Below, one piece after another: positions 21,390-28,616 of a stretch of 32,000 nucleotides of DNA (position 1 is its first letter; each line of letters opens with the position of its first letter). The notes beneath the pieces are model-generated. The model saw nothing but the letters and a program-made list of their open reading frames with translations, was not told the DNA's origin and made no database searches. The DNA is from Nonlabens ponticola. Its GTDB lineage: Bacteria > Bacteroidota > Bacteroidia > Flavobacteriales > Flavobacteriaceae. The stretch spans positions 1,620,001-1,652,000 of the forward strand of contig NZ_CP034549.1 of assembly GCF_003966335.1 (NCBI RefSeq), written 5' to 3'. Both the position numbers and the translations under genes were made by a program.

Positions 21390-22703
21390 ATGAAAAGAGT
21401 AATTCTTTGTGCTTCGGCACTACTGGCAGGCGGCTTTGCGATGGCACAGCAACCAGCACCACAGACTGTTCCCACAAGAACAGCTCAAACTATCGCACCA
21501 CGCGTGGTCACCATACCTACTGCAGGTGCAAGCGCAGGAAGCAACTATTCTGACATCGATCAGGCCGGTATAGGTAGTGATGCCACTGTGAAACAACAAG
21601 GTACAGCACAGGGCTCCTTTATTTCTCAAGTAGGAAGCGACAATGCCAATCGTAATGATGTTGTTGTAAGACAATGGGGTAATGTAACTGCTCTTAGTGG
21701 TGAAGGAAACTATGGAGAAGTTGATCAAAATGGTGCAGGTAATACATTTTACGGTACCCAAGAAGGTGACTTTAACCAGATGTTCTCTACTCAAGTAGGT
21801 CTAGACAATGATGTATACGTACAACAAGGTGATGACACTGCTGAGCAGGCTGAAGGGAATTTAGCAATAGTCGATCAGGATGGATCAATCAACGTAGCCT
21901 CTGTTGAGCAACGTTTTGATAACAATCAGTCATCAATCACTCAAAGAAATAGTGTTGGCGCGATCAGTGGTAACGTTTCCTACCAAGATCAGGTAGCTAA
22001 TCCAAATCAGTCTGCGGGTCATGTAGCAATAGGTGAGCAATGGGGTGAAGGTAATGAATTGGCGCAATTTCAGGTAGGGCCTGGTGACGGTAACTATGCT
22101 GAGGCCTTACAAGGTAATGCAACAGATGCTGCTCAAGGAGGATTTGTGCAACAAGTTCAAACTGGTTCATTAAATGAAGCTTACGCAACTCAAATAGGAG
22201 TAGATAACACATTGTATCAAGAACAAGACGGTAGCGGCAACACAGCACAAGCTATTCAGGCTGATAATCCTGCAAGTGGTAATGATATGGTTGCTATGCA
22301 ATATCAAAGTGGAGATGATCACAGTGCCTATGTAAAGCAAAATGGTTCTTTGAATGAGGCATATCAAGAACAATTTGGTGAAGGCAACATTTCTAACATT
22401 GAGCAAAGAGGTGGCGTGAATCCACTAGAAGCAAATCTAGCAACTACTTTACAAAGTGGAGCGTTGAACCAATCTGATATACTTCAAAAAACAAGAGGTA
22501 ACGTATCATTTGTTGACCAATTAGGGAATGGTCACCAATCAATAATTAACCAAAATGCTAACGGAACATCAGCTCCAGGAGCACAAGGATTCAATACTGC
22601 AACTGTTTCTCAACGTAATGCAAACGTTTCTTTCTCGCCAGCTCAATCTCGCACTTTTGTAGGAACGCCAGCTGCTCAAAGAGTACGTAACAATAACAAC
22701 TAA
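21390..22703 (+). CDS. giant curlin-repeat protein, paralog 1 (CsgA-like functional amyloid subunit)
   Basis: 437 aa with a signal peptide (MKRVILCASALLAGGFAMAQ). The mature part is Q/N/G/A/D-rich and Cys-free. It is built from many Q-x-G-x-x-N-x-(A/F)-x3-Q modules, e.g. VDQNGAGNTFYGTQEGDFNQMFSTQVGLDNDVYVQQG. Confidence 0.8.
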   Translation: MKRVILCASALLAGGFAMAQQPAPQTVPTRTAQTIAPRVVTIPTAGASAGSNYSDIDQAGIGSDATVKQQGTAQGSFISQVGSDNANRNDVVVRQWGNVTALSGEGNYGEVDQNGAGNTFYGTQEGDFNQMFSTQVGLDNDVYVQQGDDTAEQAEGNLAIVDQDGSINVASVEQRFDNNQSSITQRNSVGAISGNVSYQDQVANPNQSAGHVAIGEQWGEGNELAQFQVGPGDGNYAEALQGNATDAAQGGFVQQVQTGSLNEAYATQIGVDNTLYQEQDGSGNTAQAIQADNPASGNDMVAMQYQSGDDHSAYVKQNGSLNEAYQEQFGEGNISNIEQRGGVNPLEANLATTLQSGALNQSDILQKTRGNVSFVDQLGNGHQSIINQNANGTSAPGAQGFNTATVSQRNANVSFSPAQSRTFVGTPAAQRVRNNNN

Positions 22704-22711
22704 AACATTTT

Positions 22712-22741
22712 ATCCAGGTGAGGTTTTTATCTCATCTGGAT
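22712..22741 (+). terminator. intercistronic stem-loop after curlin 1 (possible partial terminator / mRNA stabiliser)
   Basis: ATCCAGGTGAG-gtttttat-CTCATCTGGAT. The 11-bp stem has one G-U pair and is followed by a weak T-tract (tcttt). Confidence 0.5.
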
Positions 22742-22757
22742 CTTTAAAACACACATT

Positions 22758-24026
22758 ATGAAACATTTAATTATAACTGCTTCAGCTCTATTGGTAGGAT
22801 CGATAGCTGCAGCACAATCGCAACAACCTATAGTGGCACCTGTTGCACAGACAATTTCAACTGCGAGCGCTGCGCAAGGTGGCAACTCTTCTAAGGTTGA
22901 TCAATCAGGTATAGGTAGTGATGCTGTTGTGGCACAACAAGGTACCGCAAACGGTTCATTCATTGCTCAGGCAGGTACTGACAATGGAAATCGCAACGTG
23001 GCTGACGTACTACAACATGGTAATGTACAGCCTAGCATTAGCGGTCACTTAAACTACTCAGACATCGCACAGGTAGGAGCTGGAAATGAGTTTATGGTGA
23101 CTCAACAAGGTGATCTAAACCAGATGTTTGGTACTCAAGATGGTGTTGATAATGCCGCACTGGTACAACAAGGCGCTGATGGACCGCAGCAAGCTGAAGG
23201 TAATTTAGCTTTAGTAGATCAGTCAGGTCTAGGCAATGATGCGGAAGTACAGCAGCGTTGGGATAACAATCAGTCAAGCATTTTACAAAGTAATGATGCG
23301 GTTGCGGGTGTAGGTAACAAATCATTCCAAAGTCAAAAAGCTAATCCTAACCAGTCTGCAGGACACCGTGCAATAGGTGAGCAGTATGGTGATGGTAATC
23401 AATTGGTCCAAATTCAAGAAGGTCCAGGTTCTGGAAACTACGCGCAATCTAATCAAGGTAATGCAACAACTGCAGCAACAACTGCTTTTGCACAGCAGGT
23501 ACAGTCTGGTGAAGGAAATGAAGCATACAATACCCAATTTGGTGTGAATGATGAATCTTTCCAGGAGCAAGTTGGGTCTGACAACCTTGCAGAAGTAAAG
23601 CAAAATACACTTCCTACTATTGGTGCAGATAACTATGCGGCACAGTTCCAGGATGGATCTGATAATGAAGCTCGTGCTGATCAAAACGGATTTAATCAAG
23701 ATGCTTTTCAAGAGCAGTACGGAACTAATAATGTCTCTACAATCAAACAACGCGCTGGACAAGTTGCTGGTAATCTAGCTCTTTCTATTCAAAGAGGAGA
23801 TGCTAATATATCTGCAATTACTCAAAACCTTGATGGAAATAGTGCTATGGTAGATCAGTTAGGAGATGGCCATCACAGTGTGGTAAATCAAAATGCCTCT
23901 CAAAATGCATCTGCGAGACCTAATGCTGGCTTCAATACGGCAACCGTAACTCAAAGAAATGCAAACGTTTCATTGACTCGTGCGACTCAAAGAGCAGCAG
24001 CTGTCAAGAGACACTTCAACAATTAA
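22758..24026 (+). CDS. giant curlin-repeat protein, paralog 2
   Basis: 422 aa with a signal peptide. It shares conserved blocks with paralogs 1 and 3 (GIGSDA.V.QQGTA.GSFI.Q; ANPNQSAGH.AIGEQ.G.GN.L.Q.Q.GPG.GNYA; GFNTATVTQRNANVS). Confidence 0.8.
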   Translation: MKHLIITASALLVGSIAAAQSQQPIVAPVAQTISTASAAQGGNSSKVDQSGIGSDAVVAQQGTANGSFIAQAGTDNGNRNVADVLQHGNVQPSISGHLNYSDIAQVGAGNEFMVTQQGDLNQMFGTQDGVDNAALVQQGADGPQQAEGNLALVDQSGLGNDAEVQQRWDNNQSSILQSNDAVAGVGNKSFQSQKANPNQSAGHRAIGEQYGDGNQLVQIQEGPGSGNYAQSNQGNATTAATTAFAQQVQSGEGNEAYNTQFGVNDESFQEQVGSDNLAEVKQNTLPTIGADNYAAQFQDGSDNEARADQNGFNQDAFQEQYGTNNVSTIKQRAGQVAGNLALSIQRGDANISAITQNLDGNSAMVDQLGDGHHSVVNQNASQNASARPNAGFNTATVTQRNANVSLTRATQRAAAVKRHFNN

Positions 24027-24037
24027 TCAACCTTTTT

Positions 24038-24063
24038 TAATCCACCAGTGAACACTGGTGGAT
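24038..24063 (+). terminator. intercistronic stem-loop after curlin 2
   Basis: AATCCACCAGTG-aa-CACTGGTGGATT is a perfect 12-bp inverted repeat. Realistically this is a 10-bp stem with a 6-nt loop. An A/T-rich tail follows. Confidence 0.55.
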
Positions 24064-24085
24064 TATTAATATTAAAAAACGAATT

Positions 24086-25360
24086 ATGAAGTACACAATA
24101 ATAACGGCTGCTATCCTTTTAGGTGGATCAGTAGCTATGGCTCAAGGTCCGGTACGTAAAGCGGTAACCACGCCAGTTGTAAAGACAAATCCTAAGGCAG
24201 GTGCTACTGTAGGTAGCAACTACTCTGAAATTGATCAGGTTGGAATAGGTAGTGATGCCTTTGTAGAACAACAAGGAACTGCAAATGGATCATTCATCCT
24301 ACAAACAGGAGCTGCTAAAATGAACCGCAACTCGGTTGATTTACGTCAATGGGGTAATGTAACTGCCGCAAGTGGTGAGGCAAATTATTCATCAGCTATT
24401 CAAGATGGCTCTGGAAATAGTCTTGTTGCAGATCAATCTGGTGATGCAAACAGTCTATTCAGTACACAAGTAGGTCTTGATAACGAGGCAATTCTTGCGC
24501 AAGGAAGCATGACTGCTCAAAAGGCAGAAAATAACATATCTGTCATCGATCAAGACGGTAAGGATAACTTTGCCACCGTTTTTCAAGGATTTGATGATAA
24601 TGAAGCATCTATCCTTCAAAGAAATGATCAAGTGACTGGTGTTGGTAATCGCGCTTTTCAAGATCAGCGCTCTAATCCTAATGGTAGTGCTCTCGCTAAT
24701 ACCGCGATAGGTACTCAGTATGGTGACGGCAACGACCTTGTACAAATTCAAAGTGGTCCTGGAAACGATAATTATGCTGAGGCCAATCAAGGTGATGCAG
24801 CAACAGCTGCTTCTGGAGCATTTGTACAACAAGTACAAACTGGAGACGGTAACGAGGCATTTGCTGATCAATTCTTGACTGGTGATACGGCCTTCCAAAC
24901 GCAATCAGGTTCTGACAACGTTGCTGTGGCGAGACAAAATACCGCTGGTGTATCAACTGGAGGAAATAATTTGACCGATCAATGGCAAGAAGGAGAAAAC
25001 AACAGAGCTACCTCTAATCAATTTGGAAACAACAACAGTTCTTTCCAGGAGCAGTACGGTGAGCGTAATAGTTCTGTAACTACTCAGGCGATGGGTCAAG
25101 ATGCAGGAAATCTAGCAAATAGCATTCAATCTGGGATCAGAAATATTTCTCGTATTGATCAAGGAGCACATGGTAATGTATCATTTGTTGACCAGACAGG
25201 TGATAGACAACACAGTATCATAAAGCAAAATCGTCCAGGTATTGGTGGTACGGTAGCAGAAGGTTACAACACTGCAACTGTTACACAACGCAACGCAAAT
25301 GTTGCTTTGACTGCTCAAACTCAAAGAGCAGCAACAATCAAGCGTCGTTTTGATGACTAA
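24086..25360 (+). CDS. giant curlin-repeat protein, paralog 3
   Basis: 424 aa with a signal peptide, the same module architecture, and the conserved C-terminal block YNTATVTQRNANVALTAQTQRAATIKRRFDD. Confidence 0.8.
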   Translation: MKYTIITAAILLGGSVAMAQGPVRKAVTTPVVKTNPKAGATVGSNYSEIDQVGIGSDAFVEQQGTANGSFILQTGAAKMNRNSVDLRQWGNVTAASGEANYSSAIQDGSGNSLVADQSGDANSLFSTQVGLDNEAILAQGSMTAQKAENNISVIDQDGKDNFATVFQGFDDNEASILQRNDQVTGVGNRAFQDQRSNPNGSALANTAIGTQYGDGNDLVQIQSGPGNDNYAEANQGDAATAASGAFVQQVQTGDGNEAFADQFLTGDTAFQTQSGSDNVAVARQNTAGVSTGGNNLTDQWQEGENNRATSNQFGNNNSSFQEQYGERNSSVTTQAMGQDAGNLANSIQSGIRNISRIDQGAHGNVSFVDQTGDRQHSIIKQNRPGIGGTVAEGYNTATVTQRNANVALTAQTQRAATIKRRFDD

Positions 25361-26668: not shown

Positions 26669-27094
26669 ATGCTCAACAAAATTACAACACCGCTCACGTT
26701 GTTAATTTTACTTTGCCTTGCGGCAACAAGTAACGCTCAACAACTTGTTTATAAACCTATCAATCCAGCCTTTGGCGGTGATACGTTTAATTATCAGTGG
26801 CTTATTCAAAGTGCTGAACAACAAAATAAATTCACAGATCCCGCGCAACGTGGACTCAACGATCCACAATCAGAGCTTGATAGCTTTGCAGACGGACTTA
26901 ACCGACAAATCTTAAGTCAATTATCCAGATCATTAATCAATGCTCAAATTGATCTTAATGATGGGTTAGAACCAGGAACTTTCAGTTTTGGTAGTCTAGA
27001 GGTAGAAGTTCTAGAGTCGTTAGATGGACTTGTGGTAAACATTCTCGATACTAACACAGGAGACACCACTCAAGTAGTTATACCTACAAATTAA
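26669..27094 (+). CDS. csgF: curli assembly component CsgF
   Basis: 141 aa with a signal peptide. The mature N-terminus QQLVYKPINPAFGGDTFNYQWLIQSAEQQNKF matches the E. coli CsgF signature [26 protein letters not shown]. Confidence 0.85.
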   Translation: MLNKITTPLTLLILLCLAATSNAQQLVYKPINPAFGGDTFNYQWLIQSAEQQNKFTDPAQRGLNDPQSELDSFADGLNRQILSQLSRSLINAQIDLNDGLEPGTFSFGSLEVEVLESLDGLVVNILDTNTGDTTQVVIPTN

Positions 27095-27104
27095 AACGGT
27101 GTCC

Positions 27105-28616
27105 ATGAAAAAATCAATCAACCCAATAGGGCTCGTACTCTTGTGCTTACTTTTTTCAAGTTGTGGAGCCTACTTTAATCAGCCACTTGATACTCAAAAT
27201 GCGCGAGTAGGAGAAACTACAGACGCCACGTTGCGTTTGAGAGAATTGCCGCCACCTGTTGCACCAGCGGTTGTAGGCGTATATAAATTTGAGGATCAAA
27301 CAGGACAGTTCAAACAGGCAGAGTCTGGTTCAACCTTTAGCAATGCCGTTACTCAAGGTGGTACTACTATTCTTGTAAAGGCACTAGAAGATTCTAAATG
27401 GTTCACACCGATAGAGCGAGAAAACTTAGGTAATCTTATTAATGAACGCAATATTATTCTTTCAACTCGCAAGGATTTTGCACAAAAGACAAACACCCAG
27501 GTAAAAGACTTGCCACCATTACTTTATGCGGGTGTCTTGATAGAAGGTGGTATCGTTTCTTATGATACTAATGTACTTACCGGTGGTGTCGGCGCGAGAT
27601 ACTTTGGCGCTGGTGGTTCTACAAAATATCGTCAAGATCGAGTTACCGTTTACTTAAGAGTAGTCTCTACTAAGAATGGTGCCATCATGAAAACGGTTTA
27701 TGTTTCTAAATCTATTTACTCACAAGCTGTAGATGCGAGCCTTTTCAGGTACGTGAACTTCAAACGATTACTAGAGGCAGAAACCGGTTTCACGCGCAAC
27801 GAGCCAGGACAATTAGCTGTAAAAGAAGCTATTGAAAAGGCCGTAGAAGCTCTTATAGTAGAAGGTATCAGCGCAGATTTATGGTATCCAGCAGGTGGCG
27901 AGCCAGTCGCTAATAAGATGATTGCTGACTACCGTCAGGAAAAAGAAGTGGCAGAGCGTACTGACGTTTATCAACGCGATCTTCTTGATCGACGCAGTCG
28001 CTGGAGACTGGATATAGGTGCTGGTGGAACCTATGCTAACAACGATTTACCTGACCCATACTATGAATATTCTATCACGGGTGGGTTGAAATATAATTTC
28101 TCACCACATCTGGGAATTTATGGTAGTATTAATAGATATCGATTGAAGAATACTGATTTATTCAATAGAGAATTTAGCAGTAGTGATCTCAATCTAGAGT
28201 TGACCGTGTTACCGTTTGAAAAATTCACTCCTTATGCCTATGGTGGCGCTGGACTCAATTATGCTAATTCTTTACAAGTAGTGGATTTTAAAGCTCAAGC
28301 AGGCCTAGGCTTTGAATACATGGCCACGCCAGCTATCGGGCTCAAGGTTTATGGAGAGTACAATGTCGTATTTTCTGATGAACTGGAAAACCTCGTTGCA
28401 GGACAGCAGGATGATCACTATTACAAATTTGGCGCTGGTATCAATATATACATTGGTGGTAGCAAGGCAAAGGATAATTCCGCGCGCTATCAACGTCGCA
28501 GGGCAGCTCGAGATGCAAGAAGAAAGAGTCGTCTAGAACCGCCCATTGATAGTAGTAATGATACTACGATTCCGCTTTCGCGAAAGCAAAATAATAACAC
28601 ATCTCAACAACTTTAA
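27105..28616 (+). CDS. csgG: curli secretion channel lipoprotein CsgG fused to a C-terminal 8-strand OMP beta-barrel-like domain and basic tail
   Basis: Lipobox LLFSSC. Residues ~50-265 align closely to E. coli CsgG (VYKFEDQTGQFK, WFTPIERENLGNLINERNII, GGVGARYFGAGGSTKYRQDRVTVYLRVVS, FTRNEPGQLAVKEAIEKAV). Residues ~301-454 form 8 alternating amphipathic strands. The tail is RYQRRRAARDARRKSR. I prefer ATG at 27105 over GTG at 27099. Confidence 0.9.
   Translation: MKKSINPIGLVLLCLLFSSCGAYFNQPLDTQNARVGETTDATLRLRELPPPVAPAVVGVYKFEDQTGQFKQAESGSTFSNAVTQGGTTILVKALEDSKWFTPIERENLGNLINERNIILSTRKDFAQKTNTQVKDLPPLLYAGVLIEGGIVSYDTNVLTGGVGARYFGAGGSTKYRQDRVTVYLRVVSTKNGAIMKTVYVSKSIYSQAVDASLFRYVNFKRLLEAETGFTRNEPGQLAVKEAIEKAVEALIVEGISADLWYPAGGEPVANKMIADYRQEKEVAERTDVYQRDLLDRRSRWRLDIGAGGTYANNDLPDPYYEYSITGGLKYNFSPHLGIYGSINRYRLKNTDLFNREFSSSDLNLELTVLPFEKFTPYAYGGAGLNYANSLQVVDFKAQAGLGFEYMATPAIGLKVYGEYNVVFSDELENLVAGQQDDHYYKFGAGINIYIGGSKAKDNSARYQRRRAARDARRKSRLEPPIDSSNDTTIPLSRKQNNNTSQQL
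28574..28587. repeat. palindrome core GCTTTCGCGAAAGC inside the csgG 3' tail (encodes P-LSRK-Q)
   Basis: Read directly. It lies 27 nt before the csgG stop and 32 nt before the next ATG. Confidence 0.9.

Follow-up and report, generated by a model that had tools for sequence, protein, structure and literature searches.

A curli channel protein of Bacteroidota in which CsgG is covalently linked to an OmpX/NspA/OmpA-N-like barrel

The curli pore CsgG serves as the model of peptide export through the outer membrane without an energy source, and commercial nanopore sequencing also uses it. Structural and mechanistic work on CsgG has all been done on the enterobacterial protein of ~260 residues. E. 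coli CsgG forms a nonameric 36-strand barrel with an inner diameter of 4 nm, and only its hairpins lie outside the periplasm (PMC4594475). According to the foundational curli diversity survey, the size of CsgG does not vary (PMC3521004). Here we analysed a window of 32,000 nucleotides from the marine flavobacterium Nonlabens ponticola (Flavobacteriaceae; contig NZ_CP034549.1, positions 1,620,001 to 1,652,000), which carries a curli operon with a csgG gene of 503 codons. Whereas the enterobacterial protein ends with CsgG, the channel bears a second complete barrel in all Bacteroidota lineages that we sampled. Our results show that the Bacteroidota form of the type VIII (curli) channel is built from a CsgG protomer covalently linked to a barrel like those of OmpX, NspA and the OmpA N-domain.

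A first-pass annotation of the same window had described a complete CsgG followed by a charged linker, an eight-strand barrel of OmpX/OmpA-N type and a basic tail. Pfam, AlphaFold2, Foldseek, amphipathicity and conservation all agree with this description. Residues are numbered here from the ATG (503-aa numbering); the first-pass annotation used a 505-aa numbering, in which every residue number is higher by 2.

The CsgG domain, the barrel and the tail of the fused protein

The N-terminal half of the protein is CsgG by profile match, lipobox, Phe ring and operon context. Pfam CsgG (PF03783) matched residues 57-264 of the open reading frame (ORF) with E=4.6e-62 (209.5 bits, cut-off 20.8), in good agreement with the earlier placing of the CsgG end near residue 265. 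The E. coli CsgG chains in the PDB aligned over aa 27-278 (E~6e-57) with an identity of ~37-40% over ~250 residues. When the full-length AlphaFold2 model, which was built on a 57-sequence alignment, was compared with the PDB by Foldseek, ranks 1-18 were all CsgG. The score against the NCBIfam equivalog of E. coli CsgG was 204, below the cut-off of 505, as expected of a distant orthologue. The domain contains the periplasmic alpha/beta domain, the two transmembrane hairpins, the constriction-loop Phe78 and the C-terminal helix, and its mean top-residue frequency was 0.86 (this and all other conservation figures refer to an alignment of 57 homologues). F78 is invariant and pairs with F56 of E. 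coli within ...SGSTFSNAV.... A constriction loop requires a Phe ring and then a hydrogen-bond donor or acceptor (PMC4594475). No acidic residues were found after the lipobox Cys of CsgG (C-G-x-Y-F-N-Q-P), which is thus without a motif resembling an export signal.

The C-terminal half is predicted to have the fold and the physico-chemistry of the OmpX/NspA/OmpA-N class. The full-length AlphaFold2 model contains eight strands at 300-310, 321-331, 336-349, 353-367, 374-387, 392-406, 411-423 and 437-450, with a predicted local distance difference test score (pLDDT) of 85-93. The model of the barrel alone gave the same eight strands (pLDDT 85.1, predicted TM-score (pTM) 0.77). Seven of the eight strands listed in the first-pass annotation coincide with those of the model, but the fourth overlaps only partially (362-371 in the list, 353-367 in the model). 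In the Foldseek search with the full-length model, the CsgG ranks were followed only by eight-strand outer-membrane barrels. The barrel matched NspA, the OmpA transmembrane domain, OprG/OmpW, Ail, OprF-N, OmpX and PagL. For NspA (1p4t), TMt was 0.76-0.80 and the root-mean-square deviation (rmsd) 3.1-3.4, and with the barrel alone TMq was 0.64, TMt 0.76 and rmsd 3.4. The OmpA transmembrane domain gave TMq/TMt of 0.60/0.64 against the barrel-only model. Two closer assignments within this fold were tried and rejected. The likeness to the lipid A deacylase PagL is one of fold only, as no His or Ser was found among the invariant or near-invariant barrel columns. For PorG, a type IX secretion system (T9SS) protein, the NCBIfam model NF052316 scored 15.8 bits against a cut-off of 130 (E=0.009) and covered only strands 5-8.

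The strands of the predicted barrel have two distinct faces in the 57 homologues. The mean Kyte-Doolittle value of the hydrophobic face was between +0.3 and +2.2 per strand, with strand 3 the weakest and the other seven at +0.9 or above, and that of the polar face was between -0.15 and -2.0 in all eight strands. Of the connections between strands, L1 (10 aa) and L4 (13 aa) are the longest and lie on the predicted outer side together with the short loops L2 and L3 (3-4 aa), and the predicted periplasmic turns have 4-6 aa. Within L1 and L4, which are predicted surface loops, D314, D425, G433, D436 and D437 are invariant, and D428 occurs in 98% of the homologues; these six residues show the highest conservation among the non-strand residues of the barrel. 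The last strand keeps G445-x-N447-x-Y449 (G-x-N-x-Y), which resembles a beta-signal and is internal to the protein. The barrel segment is free of indels, with 161 aa in 56 of the 57 homologues despite an identity of only 33-65%.

The Pfam family OMP_b-brl (PF13505), whose search had been proposed in the first-pass annotation, matched residues 299-447 with E=1.9e-5. The score of 25.3 bits was just under the gathering score of 28.7. The same family was found at E<=1e-3 in 38 of the 57 homologues (best E=1.5e-10), and PF13505 is precomputed for many homologues. Membership of OMP_b-brl is therefore borderline for the N. ponticola sequence and clear for many of its homologues.

A charged linker of 43 aa joins CsgG to the barrel; by DSSP on the AlphaFold2 model, it includes a predicted helix at 266-285. 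Y276, E279, K280, A283, T286, Y289, R291, R296 and R297 are its conserved residues. The two arginines of this set that stand as a pair just ahead of strand 1 are especially well kept: R296 is found in at least 90% of the homologues and R297 is invariant. Purifying selection keeps CsgG, linker and predicted barrel together as a single polypeptide in curli operons throughout the phylum.

The tail behind the barrel, described earlier as an Arg/Lys-rich segment of ~50 aa, has 51 aa with 13 K/R and 5 D/E, a net charge of +8 and an isoelectric point (pI) of 11.5. AlphaFold2 predicted a helix at ~454-477 and disorder for the last ~25 residues. In the 57 homologues the tail varies from 5 to 124 aa and is always rich in K/R, but its sequence is not conserved. 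It has only ~5-9 residues in several Aquimarina, and in Hymenobacter, Sphingobacterium and Moheibacter the C-terminus lies 3-8 residues past the barrel end, so that the tail is absent. Since it is missing from these three genera and from some Aquimarina, it cannot be essential to the fused design. Pfam revealed neither OmpA_C nor any other peptidoglycan-binding or other known domain in aa 453-503. The tail is thus an accessory found only in Flavobacteriaceae, conserved in composition alone and outside the ancestral design. The C-terminal peptides are lineage-specific; in Nonlabens the peptide is D-T/S-(x)-L-S-R-K-Q, also written as D-S/T-L-S-R-K-Q-(T)-N (window 28560-28613).

Distribution of the fusion, its operon and the standalone barrels

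Scanning species-representative genomes yielded at least 596 confirmed relatives, and the locus counts given below refer to the best 80 of them. All 80 loci extend over the query past residue 446, and they include Flavobacterium, Gillisia, Winogradskyella, Lutibacter, Mesoflavibacter and Bizionia. The best 120 homologues, which span Nonlabens, Aquimarina, Olleya, Snuella and Pontimicrobium, are 458-577 aa long except for two truncated entries of 330 and 366 aa. More distant fused representatives were found in Moheibacter lacus (Weeksellaceae), Sphingobacterium spiritivorum and Hymenobacter sediminis, and all of the best 120 Hymenobacter-type homologues have 439-495 aa. In the loci examined, including those of Sphingobacterium and Hymenobacter, the fusion always lies within a curli operon. 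Curli CsgG thus takes the fused form wherever Bacteroidota were sampled, which covers Flavobacteriaceae, Weeksellaceae, Sphingobacterium and Hymenobacter in three classes. Compared with E. coli the architecture is unusual, but it is not peculiar to one genome.

No description of the fusion was found in the curli diversity papers, the 2023 curli survey, the OMPdb paper or the targeted literature on CsgG, Bacteroidota and PF13505. The two domains are already annotated automatically by databases. The fusion is real, widespread and uncharacterised, and it is built of two well-known modules.

Two fused proteins carry Proteobacteria labels. One is a Bacteroidota-type fused csgG in a metagenome-assembled genome (MAG) labelled Alteromonadaceae (L051, JALUXV010000585.1), which is 54% identical to the flavobacterial query and lies in a flavobacterial-type operon. 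The other comes from a MAG labelled Janthinobacterium lividum (P0490) and is 60% identical to the Hymenobacter query P0203. Both labels probably reflect binning contamination rather than transfer.

The features of the N. ponticola operon are listed in Table 1. The public annotation starts the fusion gene at the ATG at 27105, and the encoded protein is a 100% match to the N. ponticola 'CsgG/HfaB family protein' of 503 aa; UniRef names it 'Outer membrane protein beta-barrel domain...'. A GTG at 27099, two codons before the ATG, extends the ORF to 505 codons (27099-28616, + strand). The region 27999-28613 of the first-pass annotation, equal to ORF residues 301-505 in the 505-aa numbering, is the barrel and the tail.

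Table 1. Positions of the fusion gene, its parts and its operon neighbours in the window, with standalone paralogues in related loci
Feature	Position	Strand	Basis
csgG-barrel fusion gene	27105..28616	+	503 aa from ATG; ORF list
Lipoprotein signal peptide, lipobox Cys20 (LLFSS-C-GAYFNQP)	27105..27164	+	C20 and G21 invariant in 57 homologues
CsgG domain, aa 21-256	27165..27872	+	Pfam CsgG, PDB CsgG chains, Foldseek
Charged linker, aa 257-299	27873..28001	+	DSSP of AlphaFold2 model, conserved residues
Predicted eight-stranded outer-membrane beta-barrel, aa 300-452	28002..28460	+	AlphaFold2, Foldseek, strand faces, Pfam
Basic C-terminal tail, aa 453-503	28461..28613	+	Charge, predicted helix and disorder, homologue tails
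Three tandem large acidic curlins, presumed substrates	21390..25360	+	Pfam Curlin_rpt
Small curlin-repeat protein, CsgB-like, 171 aa	25418..25933	+	Pfam Curlin_rpt
CsgH/CsgC-like N-terminal domain fused to CsgE, 243 aa	25935..26666	+	NCBIfam CsgH, Pfam CsgE
csgF, immediately upstream of csgG	26669..27094	+	Pfam CsgF, E=3.8e-38
Downstream lipoprotein, CarboxypepD_reg and TolB/PD40-like propeller, 489 aa	28619..30088	+	Pfam, NCBIfam
Standalone barrel paralogues	L082 9001-9705; L083 9001-9654; L062 1008-1679		

The same gene order recurs in the best loci: the csgB-like gene was found in 74 of the 80, csgH-E and csgF in 79 each, and the csgG-barrel gene and the propeller lipoprotein gene in all 80. 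In Sphingobacterium and Hymenobacter, too, the operon encodes CsgE, CsgF, the long CsgG and a CarboxypepD_reg/PD40 protein. The three curlins (21390-22703, 22758-24026 and 24086-25360, + strand) have 437, 422 and 424 aa and a pI of 4.2-4.5. They are roughly three times as long as CsgA of E. coli, whose precursor has 151 aa. In the 243-aa CsgE protein, aa 30-112 matched NCBIfam CsgH (E=2.7e-6, 27.4 bits against a cut-off of 35) and CsgC (E=0.004), and aa 146-238 matched Pfam CsgE (E=1.9e-8). The extra N-terminal domain of this CsgE thus resembles the curli chaperones CsgH and CsgC. The long CsgH-CsgE form was found in 79 of the 80 related loci, and the Sphingobacterium homologue has 253 aa. In the survey of curli diversity, Bacteroidetes were described as being without csgC (PMC3521004).

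CsgF (pI 4.05) and the downstream propeller lipoprotein (pI 4.16) are both acidic. After the lipobox Cys, the lipoprotein reads C-T-E-D-T in N. ponticola and C-S/T-E-[DE] in nearly all loci. Lipoprotein export signals that drive surface exposure in Bacteroidota, SDDFE and SDDDD, consist of polar and then acidic residues (PMC5080379), and C-S/T-E-[DE] fits this pattern. The propeller lipoprotein is probably a surface-exposed, uncharacterised component of the Bacteroidota curli systems.

When the barrel alone served as the query of an exhaustive HMMER search, just 115 representatives came up at E<=1e-3: fusions, fragments and proteins of 205-244 aa. These short proteins have their own signal peptide, then Y-D-x-R-G as what is left of the linker end, then the barrel, and they finish in P-T-V-I-N-S-N-P-I..D-N at the C-terminus. 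This peptide closes P0124 and other standalone paralogues, and a similar one, K-T-I-I-N-T-N-K-I-E-N-D-E-N, ends the proteins of one fusion clade (homologues P0022-P0064). The standalone paralogues occur in Bizionia, Gelidibacter, Xanthomarina, Lacinutrix, Winogradskyella, Psychroserpens and Pontimicrobium, and their barrels are 33-48% identical to those of the fused proteins. In NCBI and UniRef, most named standalone entries go under 'Curli production assembly/transport component CsgG' despite having no CsgG domain, which looks like annotation carried over from the fused protein. These barrel-only proteins therefore bear a wrong name in public databases.

The standalone barrel gene shares a conserved block with glutamine synthetase III, purM, a DUF3078 gene and ribonucleotide reductase. 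We therefore rejected the idea that the standalone paralogues are a split curli channel, as these neighbours are not curli genes. In Winogradskyella ursingii (L062) the glutamine synthetase III/purM block with its standalone barrel merely abuts the curli operon. Winogradskyella, Bizionia and Pontimicrobium carry both standalone and fused genes, and only in W. ursingii were both seen on one contig. In a neighbour-joining tree of the barrels (no bootstrap), the standalone clade is nested inside the fused Flavobacteriaceae barrels, and Nonlabens, Aquimarina, Sphingobacterium, Moheibacter and Hymenobacter branch outside it. Since the standalone clade is nested in this way, the free form should be derived: the free barrel most likely arose later by duplication or fission, with the fused form as the ancestral state, although the tree is indicative only. 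On the same indicative tree we rejected the idea that the fused barrel descends from a free outer-membrane protein which these genomes still contain.

Possible roles of the barrel and the tail

The data as a whole are best explained if the C-terminal barrels stand as satellites beside the CsgG pore and act as an integral anchor and assembly handle, with the basic tail as an accessory. We put the probability of this explanation at about 0.55. The barrel would enter the outer membrane beside the central pore as an ordinary beta-barrel assembly machinery (BAM) substrate, and up to nine satellite barrels would ring the channel (36 + 72 transmembrane strands). The satellites would be an integral membrane anchor and possibly also a handle for the assembly of the ring, and they would display the conserved acidic loop cluster at the cell surface. 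By a geometry estimate, a ring with a radius of ~4.2 nm and a circumference of ~26 nm would have room for nine barrels of ~2.5 nm, and the 43-residue linker would be long enough to lead from the periplasmic domain to the membrane.

The side of the membrane on which the tail lies can be predicted from topology. Eight-strand outer-membrane proteins have both termini in the periplasm. As only the hairpins of CsgG leave the periplasm, and a chain that runs through an even number of barrel strands ends on the side where it began, the tail should be periplasmic, which is where the first-pass annotation had placed it. The tail of Flavobacteriaceae may hang in the periplasm around the channel entrance. 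Because the curlins, CsgF and the downstream lipoprotein are acidic, a non-specific electrostatic contact by the basic tail is plausible. The most plausible acidic partners would be unfolded curlins (pI ~4.2-4.5), membrane head groups and peptidoglycan. The first-pass annotation had proposed the acidic curlins, CsgE or peptidoglycan as possible contacts of the tail.

Several points weigh against satellites that anchor and assemble the pore. The pTM of the full-length monomer model was 0.51, so the orientation of the two domains in it is unreliable, and the OMP_b-brl score of the N. ponticola protein itself is under the Pfam threshold. The nonameric state is carried over from E. coli by analogy, and we infer the placement of the barrel beside the pore. 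E. coli CsgG is reportedly independent of BamA and TamA, as Dunstan is said to have found in 2015; an assembly handle would then not obviously be needed, and the dependence of the barrel on BAM is assumed. The occurrence of standalone copies outside curli operons in several genera suggests that the barrel has a use when unattached, which speaks against a purely passive anchor. Finally, as the tail is missing in many lineages, any role of it would be accessory.

Other explanations of the fusion were weighed against the same evidence. The satellite barrels may instead be chiefly a docking platform that holds the downstream propeller lipoprotein at the surface around the pore exit. Such an outer-membrane complex with an extracellular crown would have parallels in PorV-PorU, PorQ-PorZ and SusC-SusD, and PorU and PorZ are indeed anchored by binding the outer-membrane barrels PorV and PorQ (PMC12365241). 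The lipoprotein gene comes right after csgG at each of the 80 loci and belongs to the operon in Sphingobacterium and Hymenobacter as well, its residues after the lipobox Cys fit export signals that have been tested (PMC5080379), and the most conserved non-strand residues of the barrel sit in the predicted surface loops L1 and L4. The co-occurrence, however, is uninformative, because barrel and lipoprotein are both universal in the sampled operons. Moreover, since loops and lipoprotein are alike acidic, they could touch directly only with the help of cations or through other surfaces, and the standalone paralogues keep the barrel without such a lipoprotein neighbour. We therefore regard docking as the chief role as unlikely, but deserving of attention. 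An OmpA-like envelope tether, in which barrel and basic tail fix the pore to peptidoglycan or to the inner leaflet, agrees with the Foldseek matches to the OmpA transmembrane domain and OprF-N and with a tail that is periplasmic by topology, strongly basic, partly helical and up to 124 aa long in some relatives. We consider it improbable, as Pfam detected neither OmpA_C nor a different peptidoglycan-binding domain, the tail lacks conservation in sequence, and the barrel is kept where the tail is as short as 5-9 aa (several Aquimarina) or absent (Hymenobacter, Sphingobacterium and Moheibacter). A tether would also explain at most the tail and not the fusion.

The barrel could also have an autonomous function, as a small channel, an adhesin like Ail, OmpX or NspA, or a lipid A enzyme like PagL, and be merely co-expressed with CsgG through the fusion. 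Its predicted fold is like that of Ail, NspA, OmpW and PagL, the conserved residues K396, Q398, E404, N363, E365 and N447 are polar and face the lumen, and the standalone paralogues are kept in a conserved neighbourhood outside curli operons. The odds of this explanation nevertheless seem poor. An invariant His/Ser for a PagL-type triad is missing, the tree (no bootstrap) nests the standalone copies in the fused barrels with the fused form as ancestral, and co-expression alone would hardly explain why fusion and conserved linker are kept over three classes. Finally, a frameshift or mis-assembly joining two genes, or low-complexity sequence resembling strands, might have produced an apparent fusion, and the first-pass annotation had named such a joining error as a result that would overturn it. 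The sole point for an artefact is the sub-threshold Pfam score of the N. ponticola protein. In contrast, all 80 independent genomes, and the other classes too, have this single ORF, the structure prediction is confident with clear fold matches, and at the junction neither a signal peptide nor a start codon context points to a barrel gene of its own. A joining error is excluded by this conservation, and the probability of an artefact of any kind is negligible.

The anchoring satellites could in principle be part of a larger machine. Nine covalently attached eight-strand barrels would ring the nonamer, their acidic loops would dock the lipoprotein, and, with CsgF included, an extracellular crown would guide or anchor the ~420-aa curlins, while in marine Flavobacteriaceae nine basic periplasmic tails (~+72 in total) would form an electrostatic funnel for the acidic unfolded substrates. 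This full arrangement is speculative and quite unlikely to be right in all its parts. If true, it would be a machine with components that lack an E. coli counterpart, and a structurally distinct type VIII secretion.

If satellites do surround the pore as anchors, the complex would join a lipoprotein-derived composite barrel, which is reportedly BAM-free, with classical BAM substrates, and the targeting and stabilisation of such pores would then be open to experiment. The fusion may also serve as a natural scaffold for engineering anchored CsgG pores.

Comparison with known systems

The N. ponticola protein shares with E. coli CsgG (PDB 4UV3, 3X2R, 6SI7 and 6L7A) the lipobox Cys, the alpha/beta domain, both hairpins, the constriction-loop Phe and the C-terminal helix, and the operon partners CsgF, CsgE and curlins are the same in both. 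In the constriction loop, E. coli CsgG has Asn55, whereas the N. ponticola protein has Thr at this place and no equivalent of Tyr51. The major difference is in the C-terminus: E. coli CsgG (277-aa precursor) stops a few residues past the C-terminal helix, and the N. ponticola protein adds ~245 residues.

With NspA, the OmpA N-domain, OmpX/Ail and OmpW (MBB clan), the fused barrel is predicted to share eight antiparallel amphipathic strands, short periplasmic turns and a polar lumen, with Foldseek TM-scores of 0.6-0.8 at a sequence identity of just 11-17%. Unlike barrels of the NspA/OmpX type, it stands behind a lipoprotein and is not free with its own signal peptide. It also differs from the small barrels in the family-specific invariant acidic loop cluster, and its putative beta-signal strand is internal, as in OmpA. 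In OmpA and OprF an eight-strand barrel, whose last strand is likewise internal, is followed by a periplasmic C-terminal extension. There the extension is the peptidoglycan-binding domain OmpA_C, whereas in the fused protein it is a basic tail with a predicted helix and a disordered end. The standalone paralogues share the C-terminal T-I-I-N-x-N-x-I..D-N peptide with one fusion clade. They differ from the fused barrels in having their own signal peptide, no CsgG domain and a place outside the curli operons.

The nearest analogue is found in the T9SS, where the PorK lipoprotein ring is tied to the outer membrane through its lipid and through a disulfide, essential for type IX secretion, that links it to the eight-strand barrel PorG (PMC12365241). 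PorK has no transmembrane pore of its own, and PorG is sub-stoichiometric and without detectable homology to the fused barrel. Both systems, which belong to the same phylum, have a secretion-system lipoprotein of the outer membrane that forms a ring and is joined covalently to an eight-stranded barrel, by a disulfide between two polypeptides in PorK-PorG and by a peptide bond in the CsgG fusion.

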